A model generated the notes under the pieces. That model searched no databases. It saw only the letters and a program-made list of their open reading frames with translations, and was not told the DNA's origin. Source: Candidatus Magasanikbacteria bacterium RIFCSPHIGHO2_01_FULL_41_23 (GTDB lineage: Bacteria; Patescibacteriota; Patescibacteriia; Magasanikbacterales; UBA922). From it: DNA of 64,000 nt. Shown in pieces: positions 193 to 36,089 of this stretch. The stretch covers positions 10,546-74,545 of the forward strand of contig MFPT01000021.1 of assembly GCA_001782805.1 (NCBI GenBank), given 5' to 3'. Position 1 is the first letter of the stretch, and each line of letters begins with the position of its first letter. Position numbers and translations under genes: made by a program.

Positions 193-3100
193 ATGAACTC
201 GCATCTCCGCTCCATGCTCGGACGACTGCAGTTATTGGCACAGAAAATTTGTCCCGCGTCGGGATCATCTTGGCGCACTCCGTGGATGGTATTTTTTGGT
301 ATATTGTTTTTGGGATTTTTTCTTTTAACCATTTCTCCGGCCAATGCTCAGTTCGAAACTGTAACCAATATTTTTATTATCGGCGCGGCGCATATTATGA
401 TTGTCGTCGCCAATATTGCCATTGGTTTAACTATTTTCTTTTTGCGTTTTTTCATCATGCTGGCCAGTTACAACAATTATATTGATGTTGACGTGGTGCA
501 ATTGGGCTGGATAATGGTGCGGGATGTGGCCAATATGTTTTTTGTCGTCGCGCTGTTGGTCATAGCCTTTGGCACTATTTTGGGTTTGGAAGAATATGAA
601 TGGAAAAAGAATTTGGTTAAACTTATTCTCGCCGCGATTTTAATTAATTTCAGCAATTTGATTTGCCAGCTGCTTATAGATGTTTCCCATGTTTTTAGCA
701 TTACTTTTTTGAATGCCATTTCGGCTACGGCCGGAGGCAATCTGATTAACATGTTCAAATTGGATCAAATAACGGCTTTGGCCGGTGCGGATGATACATC
801 GGGGATTGATATTGAATTGTTGGCCGCGGCTATACCGGCCATGATGTTCGCGCTTATGGCCGCGGCCGCGCTGGGATCATACGTGTATGTTATGGCGGCG
901 CGAGTGGTGGCATTGTGGGCTTTGATTATTTTTTCCCCGCTCGCTTTTATTTTTGGCGTTTTGCCCAAGACCAAAGGATATGCGGAAAAATGGTGGACTG
1001 AATTTAACAATAACATAATTGTCGTGCCGATAATGGTGTTTTTTTTGTGGCTGTCGTTTGCCACGTTGGGTTTGGGTAATATTGCGGAACAAATTCAAAC
1101 TGGTTTGCCCGCGGGTGTCCAGATAGATGGAGCGCAACAAGGTAAAACTGAATATAAGAAGACATCGTTATCATTATCCAAAGTAACCAGTTGGGAAAAT
1201 ATGGCCAGTTTTTTGGTTGCTTTTGCGTTTTTGATGCGCGGCATTCAAGAAACCGAACAAACCGGAGTTACTGGAGCCGGAGCCATCGGCTCGGCCGTGG
1301 ATTTTGCCAAAAAAGTCGGTACCATTGCCAGTGGGTATGCGGCGGGGAGATGGTTGGCGGGGAAGACGAGGGATGGAGTAGTTGGTGGATCCAAATGGGT
1401 GGGCAAAGAACTTGGTGTACATCTGGCCAAACGGGCCGGAGTTTACGATGTTCCCGAGCGAGTCGGTAATTGGTGGAAAGCCAGAGGCGTGGCATTTGAT
1501 AAACGAAGAAGCGAAGGTCCGCTTAGTGGTGTTGTCGATTCAAAAGAAGTAGGAGAAGGTGATCAAACTAAAGATGAAACGAAAAAATTGACCGATGAAC
1601 AAGTTAAGGCTGGTTGGTCAATGAGGTTTGATAGAGAAAAAAATAAAACTGTTGCCGAACAATGGGGTGTATTGAAAGATAAGGATGGAAATCCCAAATA
1701 CAAAAGTGGTTATCAAAAATTTCTCTCTCGTCGTCACGAAAAAATAATCGCTTCTCGCAAGACTTTGGAAAAAACCGAAGGAGAATTTAAAGATAATGAA
1801 GAATTAATGGGGAAGCGTACTGAGGCTCAGTCGTTTGTTACCGGTGCAGAAAGGAGAGAGAATAGAAAATTAGAAAAAGAAGGTTTTGTTGTCAAAGACT
1901 ATGATCGTGTCAAGCGTGGTATGCTTGAAATTGAAGAAGAACGGGCATCAGCAAAAACAGCCGAGTTTAAGAATAGAGGTAAAATGATTGCTCTTGGTAG
2001 CCAACGTCTAAAGGCAGAAGGAGGAAAACCTCTTGGTTTTCAAGAAGGCGGGACAGTTGCCGAGCAAATTGCGGGTCACAAAACCCGAGCGGAATTCTTT
2101 GAATCACGAGTTAACCAAATTCTCAAAACCGCAGAAAGTAAATATAAAGGCAGTGCAGCCGGTAAACGATTTTTGGAAGGAAAAATTCAAGCCGATTTGG
2201 AAATAAAGGCTCAAGAAGCAAAGACTAAAGAATTACAAGCAGGCGCCACGACGAGAATAGCTTTGACCGATACCACTGATGTTTTAGCGCGTACAATAGA
2301 GGCGGAAAAAGCCGCGCATTTAGAAGAACAAAGATTGGCAAGAGTCCAAAAAGCCGAAGAAAGAGAATTTTACAAAGGCGATCATGGCCAAGAAGAATTG
2401 CGTGAAGAAGCGGTTTTGAAAGAACAAATCGCGGCCAGTGAAGCGGGAATAAAAAAAGAAGAGGCTGAAGCCAAACGCGAAGTTGCTGAAGGTACAGGCA
2501 GTGGAGACGAAGCGAAAGAGCGAGAACACCTCTTTAAAGTAGCTCAAGACGAGAAAATCGCGGCGACAAAACAAGCAGGTGTTCGGGAATCTTTAGCGAC
2601 CAGTGTTGAAAAAAAGGCTGAATTGGTCTATGAGACATCAGACCCAGGTAAAGAAGAAAAAGAAAAAGAATTAACTGCCAAAGAAACCATTGCCGCCACC
2701 GAAGGAAAAATAAAGAAAGAAGAGGCTACTAGAAAAGCCGTACTTGCCACAGAAGACAGTAATGAATACAAGTTACAAATGGCGGAGAGGATTGCGGCGG
2801 AAAAAGGCGCAAAGTTGGAAGAGGGGAAGGTCGCGCTTGCAGAAAAAGAGGCCACCAAAGCGTATGTTTCTGGTACAGGTGCAGATACAATTACCCAAAC
2901 CAAAGAAGTTGAATTAAAAACAAAAGCCGAAGACGCGGAAATTAAACAACGTGAAGCCGAGGCAGACAGACAAGCGGCCAATAATTTAAAAGAAGTGTTT
3001 GCTAGAATCAATTTTTCGGAACAAGCAACAAAAGCGGCTGAAGATTTTGTAAAAAATATTAAAGAAGAAGACCTGAGAGATAAATTTAAATCAGCTTCTG

Positions 3101-5001
3101 AGCAAATGAAGGGATGGATGAAATTAGACGCCACGGCTTTGGCCACGGAAATTGAAAAATTTAAGACTGCCGGTCATACTCAAGGAATTGACGCGTATGT
3201 AGTGGCGTTGGGTCAAGCTCAATTGTTAAAAGTAACTACGAGTGATTCCGGTATTCGCCATAAACAAGCCGAGGATGCGGCGTCTGACGGTTTTGTGAAT
3301 AAATCTCGGTATGGAACCACTACTGCCTCAACTGCCTATTCTGATTTTTCCGATACCAAATTAAAGGATTATAAAAAACTGGAACGCACCGCCGCCATGA
3401 AAAAAGCCACCGATGTCCATGCTTTTTTAATGCACCAAAAAGAAAATTTGCCAGCGGGTCAAGAACTTGATCTTGATCAAACAGCGGAATTATATGCTGC
3501 CAGTTCTTATTTACAATCAGAAGCATGGAATGATGATCAGGCGGCGTATACATACTCTATGTTTGAAAAATTACAAAGACATCAAGCCGAAGTAGCGAAT
3601 AAAGGAAGTTCAACTGTCATGAAAACTGATGAAGCAGCACAGTGGACCACTATGGCGAAACAATATACTAGGTTGGGCTGGCTTGATAACAATGTTATTG
3701 ATGCTGGTGGTAATTTTGTATTGGATAATGAGAAAAAAGCAGATGGTACTGATGTCATTGATAAAACAAATGGAAAAGTAGTCAAAAAGGGGAAAGCCAT
3801 TGCCAAAAAATATACACGACAAAAAGCCGCGGATATGCAGAATTTAGCTGTTACAGGCGGTGATGTAAATTTAGTGGTTGCCCATCACCAAATTTCTGAA
3901 GCGGTTGATGCCAATGCTCGGGATGTTGAAAATGCTAAGCTTGAAGCAAGAAGTAGGATTATTGCGGATAAGAAAAGTGCTAATACAACATTAACAGACG
4001 AAACGGCCGCTGCATCGGCGGAAAAAGAAATTGAATCCGCAATGGCAGCTGCGGGTAAAGCTACAGCAAAAAATTATTGGGAATTGGCGGATGTTATTTT
4101 GAAATTAGGAACTAACACAACAGGCATCGTCGATGCTGCTGCTTTGAAAGTACGTTATGAAGAACATTCTGATTTGCTTCAAGACGCCACCAAATCATAC
4201 AAAGGTTTTGCACATGCCACCGGCCATGAAAAATTAGGTGGAAACCAAGGATTTGATGAAGAGGCTGATTCCTATCGTTTTATGACGGTAAGAGAGGGTC
4301 AGGCAGAAGTTCGGGCTGATCGGGTAAAAATGAAAACTCGCCAAATCTTAAATGGAGATCAGTATCATAGTAATGGTGGTGAATTAGATTTGGATACAGG
4401 GATAATTGATAATTTCTTGGAAGACACGCTTAATCTTACTATTGGTAAAATTACCCGATACCTTGATATGGTTGATATGCCTGAACGTTCTTTGAAAGGC
4501 GCGTTCTATTTACATAAAAATGAACAAGCAAAAGTAGTGCAAGGTACGGAAGGTGCTTTAAAAGATAAAAAAGTTGCGGTGTTGGGTGGAAATAAAGCCA
4601 TGCAAAAATTTGAAGCCGATGGTGATGTTGATGAAGAAAGTAAGACAAAGCATATGATGACACGTGGTGTTGTACCGGCTTTAATGTCAGGTCATAGAGG
4701 TTGGGCAGTCGCAGCCAGTAAATTATATGGCGGTCATGTTGTGGAGGCCGACGCTCAAAAAGGGACAATAAATATGCGGGTCGGTAATAAAGAATTTGCA
4801 ACTACGAAGAATGCGGCTGAACATGTTATTACTAATTTGGAATCAGATAAAGATTACTTTAAGGGTAGCGATCTTTATGGTCAAGAAAAAAGAATATTAG
4901 AGGCCATGAATCAGATTATCGCGGATTTTAATTCTGCACCTGCACCTGCATCTGCTGTTGATACTGCTGCTGCTGGTGAAGATGATACTCCTCCTACTTA
5001 A
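193..5001 (+). CDS. Giant polytopic membrane protein: N-terminal TrbL/VirB6-like multi-TM domain (~400 aa) plus a ~1200-aa K/E/A-rich low-complexity or coiled-coil C-terminal extension
   Basis: Uninterrupted 1602-codon ORF. The first ~330 aa carry 6-7 hydrophobic helices in a VirB6/TrbL-like layout. The rest is strongly biased to K, E, A, T and Q with EAK/KEE-type periodicity. It lies in one cluster with the PrgI-like and VirB4-like genes. Confidence 0.55.
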   Translation: MNSHLRSMLGRLQLLAQKICPASGSSWRTPWMVFFGILFLGFFLLTISPANAQFETVTNIFIIGAAHIMIVVANIAIGLTIFFLRFFIMLASYNNYIDVDVVQLGWIMVRDVANMFFVVALLVIAFGTILGLEEYEWKKNLVKLILAAILINFSNLICQLLIDVSHVFSITFLNAISATAGGNLINMFKLDQITALAGADDTSGIDIELLAAAIPAMMFALMAAAALGSYVYVMAARVVALWALIIFSPLAFIFGVLPKTKGYAEKWWTEFNNNIIVVPIMVFFLWLSFATLGLGNIAEQIQTGLPAGVQIDGAQQGKTEYKKTSLSLSKVTSWENMASFLVAFAFLMRGIQETEQTGVTGAGAIGSAVDFAKKVGTIASGYAAGRWLAGKTRDGVVGGSKWVGKELGVHLAKRAGVYDVPERVGNWWKARGVAFDKRRSEGPLSGVVDSKEVGEGDQTKDETKKLTDEQVKAGWSMRFDREKNKTVAEQWGVLKDKDGNPKYKSGYQKFLSRRHEKIIASRKTLEKTEGEFKDNEELMGKRTEAQSFVTGAERRENRKLEKEGFVVKDYDRVKRGMLEIEEERASAKTAEFKNRGKMIALGSQRLKAEGGKPLGFQEGGTVAEQIAGHKTRAEFFESRVNQILKTAESKYKGSAAGKRFLEGKIQADLEIKAQEAKTKELQAGATTRIALTDTTDVLARTIEAEKAAHLEEQRLARVQKAEEREFYKGDHGQEELREEAVLKEQIAASEAGIKKEEAEAKREVAEGTGSGDEAKEREHLFKVAQDEKIAATKQAGVRESLATSVEKKAELVYETSDPGKEEKEKELTAKETIAATEGKIKKEEATRKAVLATEDSNEYKLQMAERIAAEKGAKLEEGKVALAEKEATKAYVSGTGADTITQTKEVELKTKAEDAEIKQREAEADRQAANNLKEVFARINFSEQATKAAEDFVKNIKEEDLRDKFKSASEQMKGWMKLDATALATEIEKFKTAGHTQGIDAYVVALGQAQLLKVTTSDSGIRHKQAEDAASDGFVNKSRYGTTTASTAYSDFSDTKLKDYKKLERTAAMKKATDVHAFLMHQKENLPAGQELDLDQTAELYAASSYLQSEAWNDDQAAYTYSMFEKLQRHQAEVANKGSSTVMKTDEAAQWTTMAKQYTRLGWLDNNVIDAGGNFVLDNEKKADGTDVIDKTNGKVVKKGKAIAKKYTRQKAADMQNLAVTGGDVNLVVAHHQISEAVDANARDVENAKLEARSRIIADKKSANTTLTDETAAASAEKEIESAMAAAGKATAKNYWELADVILKLGTNTTGIVDAAALKVRYEEHSDLLQDATKSYKGFAHATGHEKLGGNQGFDEEADSYRFMTVREGQAEVRADRVKMKTRQILNGDQYHSNGGELDLDTGIIDNFLEDTLNLTIGKITRYLDMVDMPERSLKGAFYLHKNEQAKVVQGTEGALKDKKVAVLGGNKAMQKFEADGDVDEESKTKHMMTRGVVPALMSGHRGWAVAASKLYGGHVVEADAQKGTINMRVGNKEFATTKNAAEHVITNLESDKDYFKGSDLYGQEKRILEAMNQIIADFNSAPAPASAVDTAAAGEDDTPPT

Positions 5002-5022
5002 CAAATAATCTAGACTAATTTT

Positions 5023-6276
5023 ATGGATACTACACCATTAAAGAATCTGATTGATTGGTATAAAAAATATTCTCTAAGACAGGGAGAGACTTTTATATTG
5101 GAATTTTTTGAAAAATCAAAAAATAAGTCTGACTCTCCAGTGAATAATTTAGAAAAAATTATTCGTAGTCTGGTTGAATTTGTCACTGAATCAAAAAAAA
5201 ATCCGGAAGAATTCTTTTTATTTCCAAATGACAAAATCATTATTAGTAGTCTTGCGACCGTTGACAAAGATTATATCCATTCTGTTGTGCCAGTTATGTG
5301 GTATGGTCTTGGTTTGCAAACCGGAGATTATGATTTGTGGGAACCGGAACAGATTATCAAAGAATGTGAAGAGGTTTTTTCCGGCGCGGTTGATAATGTT
5401 CCGGTTCTTATACGCAACATCCGCGAAGTCGGAAAGAACGAGGATGCTATAAATTTTTGCCAGAAATTTATTAACCAGTTTATTCTGCTTGATAAATGCA
5501 CAATAATCACAGAATTAAATTGGCATAATTCTTTGATAATAGCGATTGCGCTTAATACGGTATATGAACGACTATATCAGCTTTCCGAAGACGAGCAAAA
5601 AATTATTCTTCAACACAGTCTTTATGTCGCTTTGTGCGCGGGCATCAATGTGCAAACGAGTCTGCAGGCTGTCTTGTATCACACCAAAACTATTTTTAGT
5701 TTTATTGCCACGTATGAACGACTGACACAGATTTTAGAAGAAAGTAATGAAACGGTGATTCAAATTAATGAAAATTCTATTCAAACTCTGGGGAGTTTGT
5801 GGAATGATTATTGTGAAAAAAATAAAAATGATTGGTCGGATATAAAAAAATTAAAATTTTTTTCTGACAGTCTGACAACCAATGAATTTCAGAAAGAAAA
5901 AATATTTGCAGGTTTTAAGATACTCCTTGATCTTAAGACAGCGGTTTTGCAACAAAAAAATTACAGTGATGATTATAATGAATCCGAAGAGTTTCGCAAT
6001 GATGTCATTAAATTAATTTTTTGGTTTGGAATCGGTGACGCCGGTTACGATGATCTAAAAAAATATTTTCAACAGACAGAAAAAAAAGTTTCTATTACTG
6101 CTTTTGTAAAAAGGCTAGTTGAAATTATTGGTCTACAAGATATGGAACAAATTGAAAATGTACTTCTTTTTTCTGGATTACTTCGCGAATTAAACTGGAT
6201 GCCGGAAGATGACAACTTAATCAGTTTCCACGAATCCACCTCCCAATTCCATTGGAATCAAGAATTATTATCCTAA
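5023..6276 (+). CDS. Hypothetical protein, paralog of the next gene
   Basis: 417-aa ORF. Segment EQKIILQHSLYVALCAGINVQTSLQAVLY aligns with EQQFILQHYFYYAIIMGVPVQSWLNVAF of the downstream ORF. A second shared block is WFGIGDAGYDD vs WYGNDAQGNQY. No recognisable family. Confidence 0.6.
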   Translation: MDTTPLKNLIDWYKKYSLRQGETFILEFFEKSKNKSDSPVNNLEKIIRSLVEFVTESKKNPEEFFLFPNDKIIISSLATVDKDYIHSVVPVMWYGLGLQTGDYDLWEPEQIIKECEEVFSGAVDNVPVLIRNIREVGKNEDAINFCQKFINQFILLDKCTIITELNWHNSLIIAIALNTVYERLYQLSEDEQKIILQHSLYVALCAGINVQTSLQAVLYHTKTIFSFIATYERLTQILEESNETVIQINENSIQTLGSLWNDYCEKNKNDWSDIKKLKFFSDSLTTNEFQKEKIFAGFKILLDLKTAVLQQKNYSDDYNESEEFRNDVIKLIFWFGIGDAGYDDLKKYFQQTEKKVSITAFVKRLVEIIGLQDMEQIENVLLFSGLLRELNWMPEDDNLISFHESTSQFHWNQELLS

Positions 6277-6277
6277 T

Positions 6278-7222
6278 ATGCCCGCTCCATTATTTTCCTA
6301 TTGCCAAAATAATCCGCTCAAAAATGTCTCTGCTTTGGAGCGGCTTATTATGGCAGTTGAGCCTAGTGCGATTACGGATACCGCGCTTAGTGGTGTCGTG
6401 GAATACGCGGCTTTGATTCTTTCCGGTTTGCGCGATTTGGAACCGCGCGGATTGGCCGACAGTTATGTTACGCAAGTTTTGGGATTTATTGACACAAAAC
6501 TTGTGGAGCAAGTGGCGACTGATCCAGCCAAATCCGCGAGTAATGATCTCAATGAATTGGCAGTGGAATTGCTCCACTCTGCGGCCGCGATTGGCGTGGT
6601 GGAAGAAATTACGCCGTATACGGTTGAAGAATTGACCGAGATTATCAACAGTTCTGACGTTGATTTTAATCATGCTATTTTGGCCTTCACTATTGGCTAC
6701 GCGATTGTGAGTGGAGAAAAAGATTATGGATCTCTATTAATGCACATTCTCATGAATCATAAAGATGAAGAATTGCAAACGCCATACGAATGGATGGATG
6801 CGTTTTTGCTCGGTTTATTAATTCATAGTGCGTGGAGTTATTTTCCCGATGCCACGGATCGTGAACAGCAATTCATACTCCAACATTATTTTTATTATGC
6901 CATTATCATGGGCGTGCCGGTACAAAGTTGGTTGAATGTGGCGTTTGCTGCCAATCCCAAATTATTGCCGCATATATTGATGCAAAAATTAAGCAGTTCG
7001 CAAGAAGTGATTCCGGAGAATTCCGGATTAAGCAGTAGTGCGGATTTTGCCAATGTCATACGCGATTATATGTCTGCAGTCAATCAAAATTCCATTCCCA
7101 CTTTGGCCGCGGAAAAATTTTTGGGCAAATGGTATGGCAATGACGCGCAGGGAAATCAATATCGTCTATGGTTGCGCGCCGCGCTTGGTACTGCCTATCG
7201 TTTGCAAACGCGGAATTTGTAA
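6278..7222 (+). CDS. Hypothetical protein, tandem paralog of 5023..6276
   Basis: 314-aa ORF starting 2 nt after the previous stop. Shares a ~60-aa conserved core with the upstream gene. Confidence 0.6.
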   Translation: MPAPLFSYCQNNPLKNVSALERLIMAVEPSAITDTALSGVVEYAALILSGLRDLEPRGLADSYVTQVLGFIDTKLVEQVATDPAKSASNDLNELAVELLHSAAAIGVVEEITPYTVEELTEIINSSDVDFNHAILAFTIGYAIVSGEKDYGSLLMHILMNHKDEELQTPYEWMDAFLLGLLIHSAWSYFPDATDREQQFILQHYFYYAIIMGVPVQSWLNVAFAANPKLLPHILMQKLSSSQEVIPENSGLSSSADFANVIRDYMSAVNQNSIPTLAAEKFLGKWYGNDAQGNQYRLWLRAALGTAYRLQTRNL

Positions 7223-7273
7223 TGCGATTTTTTTGTGATATACTTCAATTAATTTAATTTTAAAAGGAGGGAT

Positions 7274-7777
7274 ATGAATTACAATCAAAATAATTTTGCT
7301 TTTATTGACAGCCAAAATTTACATTTTGGAATTTTGGAACAAGGTTGGAAGATTGATTATCGAAAATTTCGTAATTATTTAAGGAATAAATACGATATTA
7401 CAAAAGTTTTTATGTTTATGGGGTATTTACCCTCAGAACAAGCTTTATATACATTTCTTAGACAATCAGGGTTTACGTTAATCTTCAAACATGTGTCTAA
7501 GTTACTTGACGGTTCGGTAAAAGGTAATTGCGACGGTGAGATGATTTTACAAGCTATGATAGAGTATCCGAATTATCACCAAGCTTTGCTCATTACAGGG
7601 GATGGGGATTTTGTATGTTTGATAAAATATTTACAAAAACAGAATAAATTGTTGCAAGTAATTGCTCCAACATTAGAAAATTGTTCTAAATTTATTCGTG
7701 AAGTTGCCGGTAAAAAATTATTGTTTTTTAACGATTTACAATCAAAATTGTCATATAAAGACAAAAAGACCCTATAA
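7274..7777 (+). CDS. NYN-domain (LabA-like / DUF88) putative RNase
   Basis: Motifs FIDSQNL near the N-terminus, GNCDGEMI and ITGDGDF match the PIN-like NYN domain acidic residues. AGGAGG RBS 6 nt upstream of the ATG. Confidence 0.65.
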   Translation: MNYNQNNFAFIDSQNLHFGILEQGWKIDYRKFRNYLRNKYDITKVFMFMGYLPSEQALYTFLRQSGFTLIFKHVSKLLDGSVKGNCDGEMILQAMIEYPNYHQALLITGDGDFVCLIKYLQKQNKLLQVIAPTLENCSKFIREVAGKKLLFFNDLQSKLSYKDKKTL

Positions 7778-7887
7778 AGACAAAACAGTATAGGGGCATT
7801 CTTGCTGGGAAGGACCATACAAAGACAAAACAGTGTACAGGATATTCCCTCATGATTACTTTCTAAAGTATACAACACTACAAATAG

Positions 7888-8922
7888 TTGTCAAGCCAAG
7901 TTATGCCCAATCAACCCACAATTCTCGTAAAAAAATCCGACGGAACGACAATCCGGATGACTCTTGACGAAGTCAAAAAAATGAAGGCGGAGAAAAAAGC
8001 AGATAATCCTTTGTTGCCACAAGAATTAGAGACAGCACCAGAAACAGTGATCAAAAAAGCTGTGGAAATGTTAAAAACTCCGGAATTGGAACCGGCACCA
8101 GTGGAATTTTTATTAAAAGCCAGCGCCGAGCCACATCTTTTGCATGAAGAAATAGAATCGCACGAAGTTACCAGACCGGAATTAGTGACCGCGGTTTCGT
8201 ACGATCGCACGGTTGACGCCGTGCTTAAAAATGCTCGCTTAACTCCGAGTCCGGAACTAATGCCGCGATTTCAGTCACTCATTATGTCGCTTATAAAAGG
8301 CGTGCGTACTGTGGCGCAAGTAATGGAATACGCGAGCGCGCCGCTTCTGCGCGGAGGTTTGGCACTTTCGATCGCCGAGGCAGAACGTCTTGCCACGGCT
8401 TTGAACACACAAACCGGTTTGCCCAATAACCGATCGATTATTATTCCCAAACCCATGACTGCGCCTGCCTCCACGCCCTCAAACATTCAGGGATCAGTCA
8501 AAAATAATCCAACTTCAAATCGTCCTCACAACACAGGCGCGGCTTTTGTCCAAATGCATGATGTGCAAGCGCCGCAGTCCGCGCCAAGCACAAGCAATAA
8601 AGCAGTCATGGGTCCTATAGAAGAAATGAAAATTTTTTCTCTCCTTGATTGGCGTCGTCTCGCGGCTACGCCGGATAAAGCCAAAGAAATAATTTTAAGT
8701 AAATTTTCCGGCTGGAAAGATGAATCATTTTTTTTGTATCGTGATACCAGATTGGCCTGGTTGGAATCGCCATTGGTGCGCGAATATCAAGAAAAAGTTA
8801 TCACTGCCATCAATCAAAGTACGCGTTTGTCTGATATGGCTTCCGGATTTGCGGTGAAAAAAACCCTGACACCGGCTGACATTGCCGCGCTCGTTGAAGT
8901 GAATAGGGTACTTGCGGTATAA
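7888..8922 (+). CDS. Hypothetical Pro/Ser/Ala-rich protein
   Basis: 344-aa ORF in the same orientation inside the T4SS-like cluster. No recognisable motifs. Confidence 0.5.
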   Translation: MSSQVMPNQPTILVKKSDGTTIRMTLDEVKKMKAEKKADNPLLPQELETAPETVIKKAVEMLKTPELEPAPVEFLLKASAEPHLLHEEIESHEVTRPELVTAVSYDRTVDAVLKNARLTPSPELMPRFQSLIMSLIKGVRTVAQVMEYASAPLLRGGLALSIAEAERLATALNTQTGLPNNRSIIIPKPMTAPASTPSNIQGSVKNNPTSNRPHNTGAAFVQMHDVQAPQSAPSTSNKAVMGPIEEMKIFSLLDWRRLAATPDKAKEIILSKFSGWKDESFFLYRDTRLAWLESPLVREYQEKVITAINQSTRLSDMASGFAVKKTLTPADIAALVEVNRVLAV

Positions 8923-8956
8923 TACTCCTACGGCCATGTAATCAAATTTTTACCGC

Positions 8957-9385
8957 ATGCAACAATTTGTTGTTCCACAATTTATTGAAGTGGAAGATAA
9001 AATTTTCGGGCCGATTACGACTCGGCAATTTTTAATTTTATTGGCCGCGGGCACAGCCATATTTTTGTCGTATCGGTTTGGCGATTTGGCTTTATTTATT
9101 TTTACGGTTGTTTTTGTCGGCGGTTTTTCCGCGATTTTGGCTTTTGTAAAAGTGAATGGTCAAAATTTTCATTATTTTTTGCTGAATATTATACAAACCA
9201 TGCGCAAACCATCATTGCGCATTTGGCAAAAAAGTTACAATAAAGAAGAACTGAATTATTTGCGCAAGCGCGATGCCGATATTAAAATAGAGCCGCTCAT
9301 CGTGGTCACAGCAGTAAAAAAAGATCGGATTCGCGACTTGGCTCTGTTGGTTAATACGGGCGGTTTTTACAAGCCCGAGGAATAG
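8957..9385 (+). CDS. PrgI-family (VirB3-like) small membrane protein of Gram-positive-type conjugation / T4SS systems
   Basis: The N-terminus VPQFIEVEDKIFGPITTRQFLILLAAG matches the PrgI-family signature (VPK..ee.KIFG.T.RQ followed by two TM helices). It lies immediately upstream of the VirB4-like ATPase, as PrgI lies upstream of PrgJ. Confidence 0.65.
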   Translation: MQQFVVPQFIEVEDKIFGPITTRQFLILLAAGTAIFLSYRFGDLALFIFTVVFVGGFSAILAFVKVNGQNFHYFLLNIIQTMRKPSLRIWQKSYNKEELNYLRKRDADIKIEPLIVVTAVKKDRIRDLALLVNTGGFYKPEE

Positions 9386-9403
9386 CGCGCGTTCACCATA
9401 AAT

Positions 9404-10093
9404 ATGTCTGACGAAAAAATGAGAAAAAAAACCAAAAAACGGCCTTCATCACAGGCTCATTTGCCCATCGCGGAAATCAAAGACAGCGTGGTGATTTTAA
9501 AAGACGGCACATTGCGCGCGGTTATTTTGGTTTCCAGTTTGAATTTTGCTCTAAAATCCGAAGATGAACAAAATGCGATTATTTCCGCGTACGTTGGTTT
9601 TCTTAATTCACTGGATTTTCCAATTCAAATTGTAGTCCAATCGCGCAAATTGCAAATCAAACCCTATTTGGAAAAATTGCAGGGGATTGAACGGACACAA
9701 ACCAATGAATTGTTGCGCATCCAAACCGCGGATTATCGCGCGTTTGTGGAAGAGTTGGTGGAGATCGGGCAGATTATGACCAAACGTTATTATGTCATTG
9801 TGCCCTATGATCCGCTGAATAATCGGCGCAAGAATTTTTGGGCACGATTTAAAGAAGCGCTTAAACCGGGAATTACCATTCGTTTGCGTGAAGAGCGATT
9901 TCAGACACGCAAAAGTGAAATTGATTTGCGTTTGCGTCACATTATTGGCGGACTGTCCGGCATGGGACTCACCACAGTTCAGCTGGATACGCAATCTTTG
10001 ATTGAATTATATTATTCCACTTACAATCCGGATATCGCTTTTGCCGAAACATTGGGCACGATTGGCGATCTCCAAATTGAAGATATTTCATAA
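9404..10093 (+). CDS. VirB4/TraC-type ATPase, N-terminal domain (separate ORF; frame differs from the ATPase domain ORF)
   Basis: IKDSVVILKDGTLRAVILVSSLNF resembles the conserved N-terminal 'IxDGiixtkdGslxrvievepin' region of VirB4/TrbE/PrgJ. The stop at 10093 is followed 2 nt later by the ATG of the ATPase-domain ORF in another frame. Confidence 0.55.
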   Translation: MSDEKMRKKTKKRPSSQAHLPIAEIKDSVVILKDGTLRAVILVSSLNFALKSEDEQNAIISAYVGFLNSLDFPIQIVVQSRKLQIKPYLEKLQGIERTQTNELLRIQTADYRAFVEELVEIGQIMTKRYYVIVPYDPLNNRRKNFWARFKEALKPGITIRLREERFQTRKSEIDLRLRHIIGGLSGMGLTTVQLDTQSLIELYYSTYNPDIAFAETLGTIGDLQIEDIS

Positions 10094-10095
10094 GT

Positions 10096-11955
10096 ATGCC
10101 ATTTAAACCCATTGCCACCAATAAAAAAGGAATCAGTTCGGCAGCGCCGGACATTGAGAAAAAAAAACTGCAAAAAGAATTGATTACTTTGGAAGAAGAA
10201 CGGGTGTATCGCGAAGGCACGGTGGCCATTCGCGATTTGGTCGCGCCGTCCGCACTATCGGTTCAGTCCAATTTTGTGCAATTGGGCACGACTTTTTTGC
10301 GTACGATTTTTGTGATTACGTATCCGCGTTATATGTCAGTCGGCTGGAGTTCGCCGATTTTAAATTTAAATTTGACCATGGATTTGGCTATGTTTTTTTA
10401 TCCGGTCAATTCGGAAATTATTTTAAAACAGCTCAAGAAAAAAGTTGGCGCGCTGGAAGCGCAATTGTCCGGTGACGCGGAAAAAGGCGCGGCGCGTGAT
10501 CCGTTGCGCGAAACTGCTTTGCGCGATATTGAACAACTGCGCGATGATTTAACGCAAGGCGTGGAACATTTTTTTCAATTTGCTTTTTACGTTACGCTTT
10601 ACAGCCAAGACAAAAAAGAATTGGATAAAGTTACGGAAGACATTCAGAATATTTTTGGTTCCAAATTAATTTACAGCAAAAATGTTTTGTATCAGGCCGA
10701 ACAAGGTTTTACTTCAACGTTGCCGCTGGGGATTGATGAGTTGACGATTTCTTTTAACATGAATTCCTCGCCGATCGCGGCCTCGTTTCCGTTTATTTCC
10801 TCGGAATTAAGCAGTGATGATGGAATTTTGTATGGCATCAATCGCCATAATAACAGTTTAATTTTGTTTGATCGTTTTTCTTTGCAAAATGCCAATATGG
10901 TGGTTTTTGCCACTTCCGGAGCGGGAAAATCTTATGCTATTAAATTGGAAGTTTTGCGTAGTTTAATGATGGGAACTGACGTGATTGTGATTGATCCGGA
11001 AATGGAATATGAGCATTTGGCCGAGGCGGTTGGCGGAACTTATATCAGTATTTCTTTGGCTTCGGAAAGCAAAGTCAATCCGTTTGATTTGCCGCGTCCG
11101 GTTGGTCAGCAAATTTCCACCGAAGATATTATTCGCAGCGCAGTAATTACGATGAAAGGTTTGTTGCGGATTATGTTTGGCACACTGACGCCGCAGGAAG
11201 ATTCAATTTTGGATCGCGCGCTTTTGGAAACGTACGCGAAAAAAGACATTACAGCTACAGTTGATCTGACCACAGTCGAGCCGCCGATTATGCAGGATTT
11301 GCTGGATATTTTGGAAGGCATGACGGGCGCGGAAGTATTGGTTTTAAAATTGCGCAAATATACCGAAGGCACGTTTGCCGGATTATTCAATTCTCCGACC
11401 AATGTGAATGTGACCAATCAATTGGTTATTTTTAGCGTGCGTGATTTGGAAGATGAATTGCGGCCAATGGCGATTTATACGTTGGTGAATTATATTTGGA
11501 ATTTAGTTCGTTCCGAACAAAAACGGAGAATTTTGATTATTGATGAAGCGTGGTGGCTTATGAGTCACGAGGATTCGGCCAAATTCATTTACGCGCTCGT
11601 GAAGCGTTGTCGCAAATATTATTTGGGTGTGACGACCATTACCCAGGATGTGAATGATTTTTTACGTTCGCCATACGGACAGGCGATTGTAACCAATTCG
11701 GCTTTGCAACTTTTGCTCCGTCAATCACCCGCGGCCGTGGATATGATTCAACGCGTGTTTATGTTGACCGAAGGAGAAAAATATTTGCTTTTGGAAGGCG
11801 CGGTCGGTGAAGGCATATTTTTTGCCGGCAATAAACACGCGGCCATCAAAGTCGTGGCGTCTTATACCGAAGATCAACTCATCACGTCTGATCCCAAACA
11901 ATTATTGGAAATTGAAAAAGCCAAAAAAGAATTTGAAGAACAAATGGGAAAATAA
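10096..11955 (+). CDS. virB4: VirB4/TrbE/PrgJ-like T4SS ATPase, central and C-terminal ATPase domains
   Basis: Walker A VVFATSGAGKSYAIK and Walker B ILIIDEAWWLM. The architecture resembles VirB4/CagE/TraC. Together with the upstream ORF it gives ~848 aa, a typical VirB4 length. Confidence 0.75.
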   Translation: MPFKPIATNKKGISSAAPDIEKKKLQKELITLEEERVYREGTVAIRDLVAPSALSVQSNFVQLGTTFLRTIFVITYPRYMSVGWSSPILNLNLTMDLAMFFYPVNSEIILKQLKKKVGALEAQLSGDAEKGAARDPLRETALRDIEQLRDDLTQGVEHFFQFAFYVTLYSQDKKELDKVTEDIQNIFGSKLIYSKNVLYQAEQGFTSTLPLGIDELTISFNMNSSPIAASFPFISSELSSDDGILYGINRHNNSLILFDRFSLQNANMVVFATSGAGKSYAIKLEVLRSLMMGTDVIVIDPEMEYEHLAEAVGGTYISISLASESKVNPFDLPRPVGQQISTEDIIRSAVITMKGLLRIMFGTLTPQEDSILDRALLETYAKKDITATVDLTTVEPPIMQDLLDILEGMTGAEVLVLKLRKYTEGTFAGLFNSPTNVNVTNQLVIFSVRDLEDELRPMAIYTLVNYIWNLVRSEQKRRILIIDEAWWLMSHEDSAKFIYALVKRCRKYYLGVTTITQDVNDFLRSPYGQAIVTNSALQLLLRQSPAAVDMIQRVFMLTEGEKYLLLEGAVGEGIFFAGNKHAAIKVVASYTEDQLITSDPKQLLEIEKAKKEFEEQMGK

Positions 11956-11956
11956 T

Positions 11957-12150
11957 CCAATGCAACACCAAAACATCCACTATACCAATAAGCAAAATGG
12001 AGACGAATATACTTTTGCTGAAAGCTGAGTATATTGACTTGTTGAGAATGCATAATCCGTCAGACTATCAGTTGAACAAAAGGATATCGTTGAATTTTGC
12101 TTAAGACTTAGAATAAATAAAGTTTGATTAAGACTTAGAAAATGGAGTTT
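11957..12150 (+). repeat. Copy 1 of a ~200-nt dispersed intergenic repeat (second copy at 35643..35900)
   Basis: Near-identical blocks: AATGCAACACC..AATAAGCAAA.TGGAG.., GAAAGCTGAGTATA.TGACTTGTT.AGAATGCATAATCCGT.AGACTATCAGTTGAACAAAAGGATATCGT.GAATTTTG.TTAAGACTTAGAA..AATGGAGTTTG. There is an internal direct repeat TTAAGACTTAGAA. Confidence 0.7.
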
Positions 12151-12177
12151 GATTACGAGGGAATAAGATGCTATACT
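12149..12177 (+). promoter_or_regulatory. Putative sigma70-type promoter (TTGATT-17-TATACT) with the -10 only 8 nt from the ATG of the next gene (leaderless-like)
   Basis: Hexamers read directly from the sequence. Spacing 17 nt. ATG at 12186. Confidence 0.3.
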
Positions 12178-12185
12178 AAATACAT

Positions 12186-12788
12186 ATGATGACTCTCCGC
12201 AAACGCATTTTTATCATTAACATTATCGTTACGGCCATAATTTTGGCAATTTTTTTGTATTTGGTATATGGTCGCGAATCTGACACTAGTATAATAACTT
12301 CTGACAGCGAATCCGAAACATCGCCTACAGCGCCAAAAACCATTACCAATCAAGATAAAACCAACATAACAAAACCAGCCATCGCCAAACCGATTTTAGC
12401 TTTGCCGGCGTATTCCGAAGAATTATACGTCCGTCAACTAGCCAAAATTTTTGTGGAACGTTTTGCCAGTTATTCCACGCAAAATGATAATAATAATATC
12501 ACTGATTCACTTGATTTGGCGACAGTTAGTATGCAAACTTGGATGAAAACACAGCTAAAGCCGGGAAGTCGAGATTATGAAGGCGTGGTAACTCAAGTTC
12601 TGGCTTCTTCGGTTAAAGAAAAAACCGCTTCCAGCGCCACTGTTGACTTGCAAATTCAACAAAATTTTGAACAAAAAACCGCCACAGCCGTTGGCGCTAC
12701 GCAAAAAGAAATGCGTCAAAAAAAAGGAACGGTTAAATTGCTTAAAATTGGCGATCAATGGAAAATTGATGGTCTGTATTGGGAATAA
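12186..12788 (+). CDS. Hypothetical membrane-anchored protein (N-terminal TM helix; possible NTF2-like / VirB8-like periplasmic domain)
   Basis: 200-aa ORF. The N-terminus RKRIFIINIIVTAIILAIFLYLVY is a single TM helix. The remainder is soluble and ends in a beta-rich region. Size and topology resemble VirB8-type proteins, but there is no sequence-level proof. Confidence 0.45.
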   Translation: MMTLRKRIFIINIIVTAIILAIFLYLVYGRESDTSIITSDSESETSPTAPKTITNQDKTNITKPAIAKPILALPAYSEELYVRQLAKIFVERFASYSTQNDNNNITDSLDLATVSMQTWMKTQLKPGSRDYEGVVTQVLASSVKEKTASSATVDLQIQQNFEQKTATAVGATQKEMRQKKGTVKLLKIGDQWKIDGLYWE

Positions 12789-12804
12789 TAGTATGAAGGA
12801 GGGG

Positions 12805-13467
12805 ATGAAAAAACTAACTGATTTTTTACTGGATTGCGTATTTCCTTATTTTTGTTTACAATGCGGCGCATCTGATGTTTATTTTTGCTTTCTTTGTCGA
12901 CAAGCCGATTGGTTTAAAAATCCGACGGGAATTTTTGTGCATGGCAACGAGATTGATTCTTCCTTAACTCGAATCATCAGTTTGACTAAATATAATTCGG
13001 AAGTTGACGCGGCACGACTGATTGAGGATTTTAAATATGGTTTTATAAATCAGGCCAGTACGGAAATTAACGTCTGGCTAAAAAATACCGCGTGGTTAAA
13101 TAAAGAAATCGCAGATTGTGATTTAATAATTCCCGTGCCACTGCATCGCCGTCGTTTTGCCGAACGAGGATTTAATCAAGCGGAAATTATTGCCGGTTTT
13201 ATGAGTACGATTATACATCGTCCGATTGATTTTTTGTCTTTAATTCGTGCTAAATCAACCAAACAACAAGCCAAACTGGGTCGCGAAAAACGACTGAAGA
13301 ATGTGATTGACGCCTTTGTCTGCAAAAATAAAGAAAAAATTGTCGGCCAAAATATTTTGTTGGTTGACGATGTGTACACCACCGGCGCTACATTGGAGGA
13401 ATGCGCTAAAGTTTTATTGGCGACGGGCGCGAAAAATGTTTCCAGTTTTACTTTGGCTCACGGCTAA
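12805..13467 (+). CDS. comFC: ComF-family protein (ComFC-like phosphoribosyltransferase, competence-associated)
   Basis: N-terminal Cys-rich zinc-finger-like region (CLQCG..CFLCRQ). PRTase motif ILLVDDVYTTGATL near the C-terminus. GGAGG RBS 5 nt upstream of the ATG at 12805. The ORF track extends the frame upstream to 12643, which overlaps the previous gene. Confidence 0.7.
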   Translation: MKKLTDFLLDCVFPYFCLQCGASDVYFCFLCRQADWFKNPTGIFVHGNEIDSSLTRIISLTKYNSEVDAARLIEDFKYGFINQASTEINVWLKNTAWLNKEIADCDLIIPVPLHRRRFAERGFNQAEIIAGFMSTIIHRPIDFLSLIRAKSTKQQAKLGREKRLKNVIDAFVCKNKEKIVGQNILLVDDVYTTGATLEECAKVLLATGAKNVSSFTLAHG

Positions 13468-14416: not shown

Positions 14417-14722
14417 ATGAAACAAATTTGGGATAAATTAAAAGAACATGACAAGCGATTTGACCAGATTGATGGTCAAATTGATTTTTTGGCCATTAAA
14501 GTGTTGGAACATGACGATAGGTTGCAAAGAATTGAAGAAAATATGGCAACCAAAGCCGATTTGCGGACAATTTCCGATACTCTTGATAAATTAGTCGGAT
14601 TAGCCCTCAAAAAAGATCAGGAAGTAACTTTTTTGACCCATAGTGTAAAAGGGTTATGGAATAAATTTGAAGAGTATGATCTAGATATAAAGCAAATGAA
14701 ATTATTGTTAGAATTAGGTTAA
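14417..14722 (+). CDS. Hypothetical small coiled-coil protein
   Basis: 101-aa ORF with heptad-like charged/hydrophobic periodicity. No known motif. Confidence 0.4.
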   Translation: MKQIWDKLKEHDKRFDQIDGQIDFLAIKVLEHDDRLQRIEENMATKADLRTISDTLDKLVGLALKKDQEVTFLTHSVKGLWNKFEEYDLDIKQMKLLLELG

Positions 14723-14783
14723 GAGAAATAAAAAAATAATAGGTTAAATAAATTAACACCTTGGATGGTGTTAATTTTATGGC

Positions 14784-14873
14784 TGGCGGAGAGGGAGGGA
14801 TTCGAACCCTCGAGGGATTTGACTCCCTGCAGCTTTAGCAAAGCTGTACGATCGGCCACTCTGACACCTCTCC
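14784..14873 (-). tRNA. tRNA-Ser (anticodon GCU), class II long variable arm, CCA encoded
   Basis: The reverse complement folds as GGAGAGG..T-arm GGTTCGAATCC..CCTCTCC-G-CCA. Anticodon loop UUGCUAA. Long variable arm and G73 discriminator. Confidence 0.8.
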
Positions 14874-14930
14874 ATTTTTTATTTTTTTTGCTTGCTCTGA
14901 GCGATCCCGACATAGTCGGGAGAGTCGAAG

Positions 14931-15019
14931 GGCGGAGAGATAGAGATTCGAACTCTAGAGGCTCTTGCGAGCCCGGCAGTTTAGTAAACTGCTGCCTTAA
15001 ACCACTCGGCCATCTCTCC
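14931..15019 (-). tRNA. Class II (Ser-type) tRNA with atypical anticodon loop UUACUAA (apparent anticodon ACU); CCA not encoded
   Basis: GGAGAGA-U-GGCCGAGUGGUUUAAGGC-A-GCAGU-UUACUAA-ACUGC-long arm-UAGAG-UUCGAAU-CUCUA-UCUCUCC-G. The body closely parallels the adjacent tRNA-Ser(UGA). Its loop differs from the tRNA-Ser(GCU) loop only by A at position 34. Confidence 0.55.
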
Positions 15020-15094
15020 ATAAATTCTGATATTGTGGGCTTGCCCTGAGCGAGCGACTTGTGGTGAGCGGAGTCGAAACCAAGCGAGTCGAAG

Positions 15095-15183
15095 GGCGGA
15101 GAGAGTGAGATTCGAACTCACGGAGGACTTGCATCCTCAACAGTTTTCAAGACTGTCGCCTTAAACCACTCAGCCATCTCTCC
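15095..15183 (-). tRNA. tRNA-Ser (anticodon UGA), class II
   Basis: GGAGAGA-U-GGCUGAGUGGUUUAAGGC-G-ACAGU-CUUGAAA-ACUGU-long arm-GUGAG-UUCGAAU-CUCAC-UCUCUCC-G. Confidence 0.8.
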
Positions 15184-15282
15184 AGAACTTTATCCTATAA
15201 ACAGAAAAACTATAGCAAAATTAAGTATTTTTCGCAAGTGTATTGTGCCGTGATTTTTGCCATGATATACTCAAGTTGAACT

Positions 15283-15735
15283 ATGGCTCAACACATAAAA
15301 AAAAGTTATTTGCTTCCATTAGTTAAAAATTTTGTTGAACCTGATTATAGCTTGGCTCAAACCTGGCCATTTGGTGATGAACATTGGAGCACGGCGGAAA
15401 CCGAAGGTAAATTGGCAGTTGACGTAATTGAAACCGAAACATCCATCATTGTAATTACCACTATTGCCGGAGCCCGCTTGGAAGCAATCGAAGTTTTTGC
15501 CCACAATGATATAATTACTATTCGTGGTCGTCGTGATGCTCCTATTGCAGTCGAAGACGGAGTTGAATTTATTCATACTGAATGTTTTTGGGGACCGTTT
15601 TCCCGAACCATTGTTTTGCCCGCGGAAATTAAAGCCGAACAAGCGCGCGCTGAATATAAAAATGGCGTGTTGACAATTCGCATTCCCAAGCGTAAAGTTG
15701 ATACCAAGATTTCCGTAAAAATTATTGAGGAATAA
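15283..15735 (+). CDS. Hsp20 / alpha-crystallin family small heat-shock protein
   Basis: Alpha-crystallin domain pattern: KLAVDVIETETSIIVITTIAGARLEAIEVFAHNDIITIRGRR ... NGVLTIRIPK. Confidence 0.8.
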   Translation: MAQHIKKSYLLPLVKNFVEPDYSLAQTWPFGDEHWSTAETEGKLAVDVIETETSIIVITTIAGARLEAIEVFAHNDIITIRGRRDAPIAVEDGVEFIHTECFWGPFSRTIVLPAEIKAEQARAEYKNGVLTIRIPKRKVDTKISVKIIEE

Positions 15736-15769
15736 AGTGGGAGTTTTATGTGGCGAGAGTATAAAAATT

Positions 15770-34464: not shown

Positions 34465-34527
34465 AACTTGAATAAACTAGAAGCTGAATAACTATTTAAG
34501 ACTAAAAACAATTAATTTTTTTGGTGA

Positions 34528-34561
34528 GGGGGCTCCGACTTCATGTCGGAGCCCCCTTTTT
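34528..34561 (+). terminator. Strong rho-independent terminator after guaB (12-bp GC stem plus T5)
   Basis: GGGGGCTCCGAC-TTCAT-GTCGGAGCCCCC followed by TTTTT. Confidence 0.7.
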
Positions 34562-34580
34562 GTTCTTCCTCCTTTCTTCG

Positions 34581-34820
34581 CTAGGCGAAGTTCCCGTAGT
34601 AGCTCATGACGTGACCGAAGCCTCCGCGTGGCGAAGCGCGTCGGTGATGCTCGTTGTCGTCAGATCCCCCCTTCTTCTTAGGGGGATCCACGATCGGCGA
34701 CCGGTTTGTGGACAGGCTCCGCGGCGGACGGTAGGGGGTTCCATCGGCCGAGGGGATGTCCTCGGCACGTCGGAGGGGGTTTCCCTTGTCATCCAGCGTC
34801 GCGGCACGAAATCTTTCCAT
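34581..34820 (-). CDS. Hypothetical small basic protein encoded in the GC-rich island
   Basis: 80-aa ORF on the minus strand (MERFRAATLDDKGNPLRR...KKKGGSDDNEHHRRASPRGGFGHVMSYYGNFA). GC content far above the genome background. The coding call is uncertain. Confidence 0.25.
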   Translation of the reverse strand: MERFRAATLDDKGNPLRRAEDIPSADGTPYRPPRSLSTNRSPIVDPPKKKGGSDDNEHHRRASPRGGFGHVMSYYGNFA

Positions 34821-35033
34821 GGTCAATGATCCTTGTGTCCCGACTTCGTCGGGACGGTTTGAGATGAAGAAGATTATAAATAATTGTGATGCTTTTGTCA
34901 ATAATTTTAGGCTAAAAAATTTTAAAAAAATGTTCGGTTTGACTTTTTTGCTTTTTTATTTTATTCTTTGAACAGATTGTTTTAATTTGGCTGAACAATG
35001 AGGGGTTGTTTGGTCAACTAAGGGGTTTTTTCA

Positions 35034-35231
35034 ATGAAGGTTTTGATGGTCACCCTGACTACCAAGAACAGCCGTGGAGAGGACATCCATTTCTCGATCT
35101 CGAAGGAGGGCGCGCGGGAGGCCGGAATCCTCCCTGATTCTCGATCCTGGGATCGTGCCCAGGGTGTCTCGGCGGGAAACCGCCAGTACATGAAGCGCCT
35201 CGTTCGTCGACTCGACGAGATCGGATCGTAA
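35034..35231 (+). CDS. Hypothetical small protein in the second GC-rich segment
   Basis: 65-aa ORF (MKVLMVTLTTKNSRGEDIHF...). GC-rich. A terminator follows at 35378-35405. The coding call is uncertain. Confidence 0.25.
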   Translation: MKVLMVTLTTKNSRGEDIHFSISKEGAREAGILPDSRSWDRAQGVSAGNRQYMKRLVRRLDEIGS

Positions 35232-35377
35232 GCGATCCGAACCAACGCCGTTGATTCGCCGCCACTCGCGGATCCGGCACGATCGTTCTTCATCAAGTAG
35301 CCCACCAGTTTCTGTCCCACCTTTGTTCCTTCCTCGGGCTCAGACTTCACGTCCGAGCCCTCCCACCAAAATTAAAA

Positions 35378-35405
35378 CTCTCCGAGATTGTCGGAGGGTT
35401 TTTTT
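35378..35405 (+). terminator. Rho-independent terminator
   Basis: CTCTCCGA-GATTG-TCGGAGGG hairpin followed by TTTTTTT. Confidence 0.55.
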
Positions 35406-35642
35406 ATGACAATAAATACATCAAGGAAATCAATTTAAATCGAATCAATTTAAGTCGACTTAAAATAAATCAAATCAACATGAATTTCAGTAATAGGTAA
35501 TTTTCTTTTCAGTAAAACTCGCTATTCTTCTCCTCTCCTCGTCTCTATCCTTATTGATATATTAAATCTACTTTAACCAAGTAAGCGGAAAGAAAGCTCG
35601 TACACATTACTAAAAAGAAAATTACCTACTACTGAAATTACC

Positions 35643-35900: not shown

Positions 35901-36089
35901 AAACAAAGCATGAATTTTGATTACAATTTGGCATATAAAAAATATAAAAGTCCAGTGTTTACCGGACTTTTATATGACACGTAGAAGTTTTGCCAATGAA
36001 GCACTGGCTCACTACCCTTTAATGTAAATTATATCAAGATTTATTATTTTGTCAAATAAAAAACACAACGAGAAGTTGTGATTTTTAGG

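Follow-up and report, generated by a model that had tools for sequence, protein, structure and literature searches.

A putative relaxase-less type IV secretion operon on a Magasanikbacteria chromosome with two fast-evolving orphan families and a probable terminal comF gene

The locus described here lies in a 64,000-nucleotide stretch of DNA, hereafter the window, from contig MFPT01000021.1 (positions 10,546 to 74,545; GenBank assembly GCA_001782805.1) of Candidatus Magasanikbacteria bacterium RIFCSPHIGHO2_01_FULL_41_23. It encodes a putative type IV secretion system (T4SS), in which two orphan protein families, here called par and PS, and a comF gene accompany a core of VirB-type proteins. Nine intact ORFs on the plus strand span positions 193-12788, and a tenth gene on the same strand, comF, was found just beyond that end, which accounts for the ten same-strand genes counted in a first-pass annotation of the window. 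The intergenic distances are operon-like (21, 1, 34, 18, 2 and 4 nt), the exceptions being spacers of 52 and 125 nt around a gene for a NYN-domain protein and of 230 nt ahead of the VirB8-like gene. This last spacer (11956-12185), between the VirB4 and VirB8-like genes, is non-coding, the corresponding gap of the related locus L010 measures ca. 10 nt, and a candidate promoter-like site with an extended -10 element was located within it at 12149-12177. The GC content of the locus (0.37-0.44) does not differ from that of the rest of the window.

Predicted genes of the T4SS locus, and two recombination genes of the same window. Positions are those of the window.
Feature	Position	Strand	Length (aa)	Remark
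Extended VirB6/TrbL-like protein (likely)	193..5001	+	1602	
parA	5023..6276	+	417	long form of orphan family
parB	6278..7222	+	314	short paralog
NYN (LabA-like) putative nuclease	7274..7777	+	167	
PS	7903..8922	+	339	conserved orphan; alternative TTG start at 7888 gives 344 aa
PrgI/VirB3-family small membrane protein	8957..9385	+	142	
TrsD-like protein	9404..10093	+	229	
VirB4-type ATPase	10096..11955	+	619	
VirB8-like bitopic membrane protein	12186..12788	+	200	
ComF (ComFC-type)	12793..13467	+		predicted last operon gene
recG	30902-32962			within window
radA	36358-37797	-		within window

Profile matches made the assignment of VirB4 to the MPF-FATA / CD1110 family unambiguous. The protein passed the cut-off of NF045971 (conju_CD1110; E 6.4e-102, 342.1 bits against 325), matched PF19044 and PF12846 in Pfam, retrieved the VirB4 C-terminal domain structure 4ag5 (E 3e-45) and TrwK (E 8e-6) from the Protein Data Bank (PDB), and carries the Walker A motif SGAGKS and the Walker B motif IIDEAW. 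Its match to the model of CedB, of the archaeal DNA importer, had an E-value of 6.5e-13 and was far below cut-off. The small membrane protein encoded upstream matched PF12666 (E 2.5e-10, 41.2 bits against a cut-off of 27) and has a hydrophobic hairpin at aa ~22-70, so that both the VirB4 and the PrgI names given in the first-pass annotation were upheld. The 229-aa product encoded between them, whose nature had been missed there, matched the N-terminal ~100-230 positions of VirB4 models and, below cut-off, NF041427 (TrsD/TraD, E 5e-5), and PF26593 (TraC-like) is on record for an identical protein. By these matches it is the VirB4 N-terminal domain encoded as a separate TrsD-like gene, VirB4 being split as in pGO1.

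The giant protein starts with a signal-like segment and ~6-7 predicted transmembrane (TM) helices within aa 30-350 (seven hydrophobic segments by hydropathy), followed by a hydrophilic tail of ~1250 aa, rich in Lys, Glu and Ala and containing no known domain. The protein itself returned no Pfam match, VirB6/TrbL included, even at E<=10, and a profile of its N-terminus found no VirB6 structure in the PDB, the top match being a G protein-coupled receptor (E 0.04). PF04610 (TrbL/VirB6) was matched by eight of its 31 clear homologs, with a best E-value of 2.6e-6. Total length among relatives varies from ~800 to 2100 aa through the tail, and no Pfam domain was found in the tails of nine of them. 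The earlier label VirB6/TrbL-like is supported through the family and by the topology of about seven TM helices, not by a Pfam match of the window protein itself; the giant protein is likely an extended VirB6, assigned transitively via its homologs. The last gene before comF, previously put forward as a possible VirB8-like gene, encodes a single N-terminal TM segment by hydropathy. The best PDB match of its family profile was PrgL of pCF10 (7aed, E 0.0027; hhalign probability 69%), which points the same way, if weakly, and its homologs bear the UniRef labels 'Tim44-like' or 'DUF3828', names of NTF2-like domains. For the giant protein, parA, parB, PS and the 200-aa VirB8-like protein, nothing significant was returned by Pfam, NCBIfam, PADLOC and PHROG scans.

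The locus was compared with 80 loci around VirB4 relatives (68-92% identity) from species-representative genomes and with one metagenome contig found via parA, 82 loci being considered in total. ORFs were labelled by iterated profiles built from the window proteins, and counts of gene presence take in only loci with enough flanking sequence. PrgI was present in 75/76 loci, TrsD as a separate gene in 75/78, the VirB8-like gene in 73/75, PS in 64/66, VirB6 upstream in 41/44, ComF directly downstream of the operon in 59/71, and par, between VirB6 and VirB3, in 45/56; the NYN gene was found in only three of 56. From these counts a conserved operon is deduced with the predicted order VirB6 - par - PS - VirB3(PrgI) - TrsD - VirB4 - VirB8-like - ComF, and since TrsD stands apart in nearly all loci, the division of VirB4 is a conserved split and not a frameshift.

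Conservation is uneven along the operon. Median identity to the window proteins was 75% for VirB4 (68-92% over 81 related loci), 58% for TrsD, 55% for PrgI, 43% for the N-terminal domain of VirB6, 35% for ComF, 31% for the VirB8-like protein, 28% for PS and 27% for par, which was mostly undetectable by BLAST. No gene of the operon thus evolves faster than par, and both par and PS change at far higher rates than the ATPase core; in L010, VirB4 is 89% identical to that of the window and parA only 39%. Between VirB6 and PS lies a variable slot, occupied in other lineages by unrelated ORF families. ORFs of 385-425 aa occupy the par-PS slot of L054-L058 and L067-L069, and ORFs of 404-482 aa that of L030, L031 and L046, and BLAST relates neither set to par. 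Large proteins (~800-1300 aa if complete) are encoded immediately before the VirB6-like gene in L035, L039, L074, L076, L083, L084 and others; this family of distant loci has no counterpart in the window, where rsmB stands in that place.

The two tandem genes downstream of VirB6, called paralogs in the first-pass annotation, are by sequence comparison true but distant paralogs: parA and parB match each other with a BLASTP E-value of 5e-7, and one family profile recovers both. The shorter parB aligns to profile positions 1-292 only, lacking the C-terminal part of parA (~100 aa, about a third), which carries the most conserved motif of the family. Two copies were found in eight of the 82 loci (the window, L010-L013, L020, L030 and L046), mostly the nearest relatives, and a single copy in most loci. 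When 1.84 billion cluster representatives were scanned in full with HMMER, a profile of four sequences picked up 255 family members at E<=1e-3, of which 196 reached E<=1e-10; word-indexed homolog searches with parA, the par alignment and the PS C-terminal alignment gave two to four matches each. The proposed linkage of the paralogs to the T4SS gained support beyond the counts given above, as two par-family members picked independently of VirB4 again lay between a giant membrane protein and PS, and one of these loci continues with PrgI-TrsD-VirB4-VirB8-like-ComF.

For par, a confident all-alpha, well-packed helical-repeat fold was predicted; the model retrieved no specific structural relative, and neither the par profile nor a profile of the PS C-terminal domain matched a PDB entry. 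PS is predicted to consist of three small modules, an N-terminal beta-hairpin with a helix, a middle helical domain and a helical domain at the C-terminus, with two low-complexity, disordered linkers between them. The description of PS as Pro/Ser-rich was only partly apt, as Pro (8%) and Ser (7%) are both concentrated in one linker. Neither par nor PS has a TM segment or signal peptide, and both are predicted to be cytoplasmic. In the most distant loci, L083 and L084, there is no separate par gene and PS is enlarged, and the N-terminal ~300 residues of these enlarged proteins matched a par profile built without them (E 1e-7 and 2e-6 among 4994 ORFs). Two elements, a beta-hairpin near the C-terminus of par (aa 400-411) and the N-terminal beta-hairpin of PS (aa 6-20), a candidate docking pair, are absent from these putative fusion proteins. 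Because a second par profile failed to reproduce the match, the putative fusion is taken as suggestive of par and PS working together. In sum, par is a real, T4SS-linked and fast-evolving family, and PS a second conserved orphan.

The comF gene begins 4 nt after the VirB8-like gene. Its product matched TIGR00201 (comF, E 2.2e-28) and PRK11595 (GntX, E 3.9e-25), both below the curated cut-offs, as well as PF00156, and combines a zinc finger with a phosphoribosyltransferase-like domain. The adjacency to the operon persists down to 68-70% VirB4 identity, and in loci without adjacent ComF a RadA ortholog, 47% identical to the RadA of the window, was found two genes downstream. The window also carries dprA, recG, radA, radC and topA, with recO and ruvX upstream. 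Judged by its position across the related loci, ComF is the last gene of the T4SS operon and not merely a neighbour of it, a membership that had gone unnoticed in the first-pass annotation.

No relaxase or coupling-protein domains were found by Pfam and NCBIfam scans of the window ORFs of at least 120 aa, nor any such genes among those called in the 10 kb preceding the window; these scans, together with one for integrase, which was likewise absent from both parts, cover 74 kb (the 64-kb window plus 10 kb). A small two-TM pilin-like ORF was not seen in the window by a crude hydropathy scan, and there was no pilin match in Pfam. The first-pass statement that relaxase, VirD4 and recognisable pilin are lacking was thus borne out, as was its view that this is not a classical conjugative element, given the housekeeping setting and a gene order kept over 82 loci. 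Its broader reading, a non-conjugative system for host interaction or DNA uptake, proved right but had already been published.

In passages of Quinonero-Coronel et al. (2025; PMC12102498), the VirB4 proteins of Patescibacteria are described as a monophyletic clade related to MPF-FATA, with homologs of TrsD, PrgI/VirB3 and VirB6 abundant near virB4 and VirB8 homologs confined almost exclusively to the class ABY1. The same passages report that relaxases are nearly absent, that genes for the type IV coupling protein (T4CP) rarely lie near virB4, that the T4SS is chromosomal, and that ABY1 T4SS genes frequently lie near comF, recG and radA. A VirB2-like pilin gene or array near virB4 is frequent in such systems, though not universal. 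The present locus has the following traits in common with them: an MPF-FATA VirB4, a separate TrsD-like protein, PrgI/VirB3 and a likely VirB6, no relaxase or nearby T4CP, a chromosomal housekeeping setting and, as in ABY1, a VirB8-like protein with comF, recG and radA in the neighbourhood. The 'unusual gene complement' of the first-pass annotation was therefore overstated, since VirB6, PrgI, TrsD, VirB4 and the VirB8-like protein with nearby comF make up the described ABY1 pattern. The locus differs in the ~1250-aa tail of VirB6, in par and PS between VirB6 and VirB3, and in ComF within the operon; neither the par and PS families and their rates nor an operonic ComF was found mentioned in those passages or through further literature searches. 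The locus is very probably a vertically inherited, chromosomal, relaxase-less Patescibacteria T4SS in its ABY1/Magasanikbacteria form, encoded as one operon; the second par copy and the NYN gene in the par-PS slot, which is unrelated to the system, appear to be lineage-specific additions. The T4SS itself is of a kind already described, and the novelty lies in the two conserved orphan components, their rates and the coupling of ComF to the operon.

Systems of other lineages help to place it. The Gram-positive MPF-FATA systems (pGO1/pSK41 Trs, pCF10 Prg, pIP501 Tra and CTn2 CD1110) belong to the same class: CTn2 CD1110 supplies the best NCBIfam model for the VirB4, pGO1 likewise has TrsD as a separate small protein, and a PrgI-family VirB3 and a PrgL-like VirB8 are further points in common. 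All share a monoderm architecture without VirB7, VirB9 and VirB10, but the present locus has no relaxase, T4CP, VirB1-type hydrolase or surface adhesin, is not on a plasmid or integrative and conjugative element, and its accessory genes are unrelated to theirs. The T4SS cluster of Saccharibacteria differs in its VirB2-like pilin array and VirB1-like hydrolase, neither of which was found in the operon or the window. In Rickettsiales, the extended VirB6 described in PMC12857230 similarly joins an N-terminal block of at least five TM helices to a large hydrophilic C-proximal domain; here the lineage is another and monoderm, and the tail is Lys/Glu/Ala-rich, domainless and very variable in length. 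The ComB system of Helicobacter pylori and the crenarchaeal Ced system (CedA/CedB) also operate a VirB4-family ATPase without relaxase or coupling protein, and a neighbourhood of transformation genes (ComFC, DprA, RadA) is a further point of contact, although DNA import is only a hypothesis here. Moreover, ComB is a diderm VirB2-B10 system not operon-linked to comFC, and Ced has different membrane parts.

The T4SS of Patescibacteria is essential in the one lineage tested, yet lacks relaxase and coupling protein. The gene content, order and conservation of the locus and its predicted topology and folds are observations from which we infer a possible mechanism. VirB6 and the VirB8-like protein would form a channel through the single cytoplasmic membrane, with no outer-membrane core because the cell is monoderm, and at the cytoplasmic face of this channel VirB3 and TrsD would tether the split VirB4 ATPase and make it complete. 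In the place where a substrate-recruiting module would be expected, par and PS may act as adaptors or scaffolds at the cytoplasmic base, standing in for the missing coupling protein. VirB4 would drive the transfer of a macromolecule across the membrane, most likely single-stranded DNA (ssDNA), and this ssDNA would be passed to or received from ComF and then DprA, RadA, RecG and RecO. It is the operonic ComF that points to ssDNA as substrate, as ComFC is reported to bind ssDNA and link it to recombination (Damke et al. 2022, as cited in PMC10633639). The system would thus be a DNA importer or exchanger and not a conjugative donor, with a logic like that of ComB or Ced.

We give this explanation as a whole, T4SS identity together with a DNA-handling mechanism, a probability of about 0.5. 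That the system handles DNA at all is, on our analysis, close to an even bet and perhaps slightly under it, while the full picture of a monoderm DNA importer or exchanger with a split VirB4 motor, ComFC as ssDNA receiver and a par/PS adaptor replacing the coupling protein is speculative and unlikely to hold in every part. If it did, ABY1 would provide a third independent DNA importer of T4SS type beside ComB and Ced, and organisms unable to make nucleotides would have a route to take DNA directly from the host cell.

Several points weigh against DNA handling or against parts of the assignment on which it builds. The VirB6 of the window is assigned only through homologs and the VirB8-like protein by a weak structural match, any mechanism for ABY1 members is drawn from genes and predicted models only, and the negative scans cover the neighbourhood of the locus, so that a distant T4CP or VirB2 pilin may be encoded elsewhere in the genome. 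Neither PS nor par showed a DNA-binding fold, and the fusion that would tie them together depends on one of two par profiles. In 12 of 71 loci ComF is not adjacent. ComF normally partners ComEC and type IV pili, and its adjacency here could mean co-regulation only. In Saccharibacteria, epibiotic growth of Southlakia epibionticum requires the T4SS cluster SEML1_0006-0019 but not comEC, comF or dprA (Wang et al. 2023; PMC10633639). Since these genes are dispensable, the essential role of the T4SS in that lineage is not competence, and the authors suggested that the Saccharibacteria T4SS 'may instead export proteins'.

The main rival is export of effectors into or onto a host bacterium, with par proteins as the effectors or their chaperones, PS as the recruiting adaptor and ComF co-located. 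The lack of T4CP and relaxase is shared with that essential Saccharibacteria system (PMC10633639), and the rapid divergence of par, down to 39% identity where VirB4 retains 89%, its duplication or enlargement in some lineages and the gathering of other lineage-specific ORF families in the VirB6-PS slot also speak for export. However, the predicted helical-repeat fold of par is scaffold-like, with no enzymatic or toxin-like domain detected in the model, the gene is a near-constant, single-copy member of the operon (45/56) and not a variable cargo set, and the adjacency of ComF and RadA is left unexplained. We consider effector export rather unlikely as it stands, and par and PS are the candidates by which it may be told from DNA handling.

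Another way to bring an effector into the locus was proposed in the first-pass annotation, where the paralog pair and the NYN gene were taken as candidate accessory or effector components; as a dedicated module they might form, e.g., an RNase effector with its partners. The NYN domain itself was confirmed by PF01936 (E 1.2e-14, 55.5 bits against a cut-off of 24.2) and by the PADLOC model for LabA-like NYN (E 5.8e-8). By inspection, the protein has the motifs FIDSQN, NCDGE and GDGDF with the acidic residues D12, D87, D110 and D112, which suggest an active nuclease. In favour of such a module, the gene lies inside the operon and shares its strand, and in L092 a NYN gene likewise stands between two par genes. 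There it travels together with a Bro-N gene (the two at 4767-6195), however, as if small genes of mobile appearance tended to collect in the par-PS slot. Among the VirB4-anchored loci the NYN gene was confined to the window, L030 and L031 (3/56) and was absent from the four closest relatives L010-L013, and in the window it has a strong Shine-Dalgarno site of its own (AAAGGAGGGATA precedes the ATG) and flanking spacers.

Beyond the VirB4-anchored loci, a metagenome scan returned eight NYN relatives (43-52% identity), all on short contigs, and in their flanks, as far as these reach, no par, PS or VirB6 was found. One of them (L096, 24-563) is immediately followed by pilC (T2SSF) and a pilin gene, and another (L099, 2255-2767) stands between dnaK and dnaJ, a pattern suggestive of a small gene inserting itself into functionally unrelated operons. 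Free dispersal outside T4SS loci, which the first-pass annotation had itself named beforehand as an outcome speaking against it, was thus what was found for NYN, and the paralog-NYN trio did not survive the comparison. A dedicated module of par and NYN is improbable; the NYN gene is, as far as its distribution tells, a sporadic insert in the variable slot and not a T4SS component, and a false lead is removed with this wandering small gene. A short direct repeat was observed at 7752-7837, overlapping the end of the NYN gene and the spacer before PS; it comprises two 28-nt copies 45 nt apart, AAAGACCCTATAAAGACAAAACAGTATA and AAGGACCATACAAAGACAAAACAGTGTA, and a 15-nt core is present three times.

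Highly improbable is the last rival, a decayed, non-functional remnant of a conjugative element from a monoderm donor that lost its relaxase and T4CP, for although VirB4 falls in the MPF-FATA conjugation class (in the cited passages of PMC12102498), relaxase and T4CP were not found in the scanned 74 kb and an unrelated NYN gene was inserted in the operon, nine genes are intact and tightly spaced, VirB4 is well conserved over 81 loci with the order kept and housekeeping flanks, the TrsD/VirB4 split is maintained in 75/78 loci, and neither an integrase, in the same 74 kb, nor a composition anomaly was found.

As to the wider setting of the T4SS operon, over its first 21 kb the window shows 100% identity with the metagenome-assembled genome (MAG) contig MFPY01000010.1 (GCA_001782895.1, Rifle aquifer), and six metagenome-assembly contigs (ENA, JGI) also match the window. 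Two single-base differences were found, in two of these contigs, and nothing beyond them in the way of microdiversity across the seven contigs (the six and the GenBank MAG). All of the nearest other genomes bear the label Candidatus Magasanikbacteria or Patescibacteria (ABY1 class). Upstream of the window lie rsmB, an Asn/Asp-tRNA ligase gene (asnS/aspS), recO, ruvX and map. The remaining window is ordinary chromosome, with radC, three tRNA-Ser genes, hsp20, a VanW protein gene, clpP, topA, a Mur ligase gene, dprA, pth, der, a LytR protein gene, recG, guaB, radA, clpC, pheST and dnaE.

Just downstream of the locus, three tandem tRNA-Ser genes (14784-15184, minus strand) have the anticodons GCT, ACT and TGA, of which ACT, with A34, is unusual. 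A 100-aa ORF overlapping them (14719-15021, minus strand) is spurious. They are followed by a gene pair for HSP20 and a 658-aa VanW/PG_binding_4 protein (15283-17701, plus strand). In 18 Magasanikbacteria loci this pair was again seen downstream of the T4SS operon, and its cell-wall-binding protein might serve the T4SS in a VirB1-like role. Another tRNA-Ser(TGA) gene lies at 36090-36166 (minus strand), preceded by ca. 1.6 kb (34465-36089) without an ORF of at least 120 aa and without an Rfam match at gathering threshold. Two adjoining ORFs of 416 and 578 aa on the minus strand (40722-43726) had no Pfam match; AT skew reaches its extreme for the window, -0.38, in the stretch where they lie (42-44 kb). 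The 1606-aa ORF at 57546-62366 (plus strand) was considered as a paralog of the giant protein and rejected, as it is DnaE with an intein at ~aa 757-1190; its flanks align with DnaE structures, the insert with mini-inteins of DnaB type. At the window end (62585-63250, plus strand) lies a gene for an AbiEii-type nucleotidyltransferase toxin of a type IV toxin-antitoxin system.

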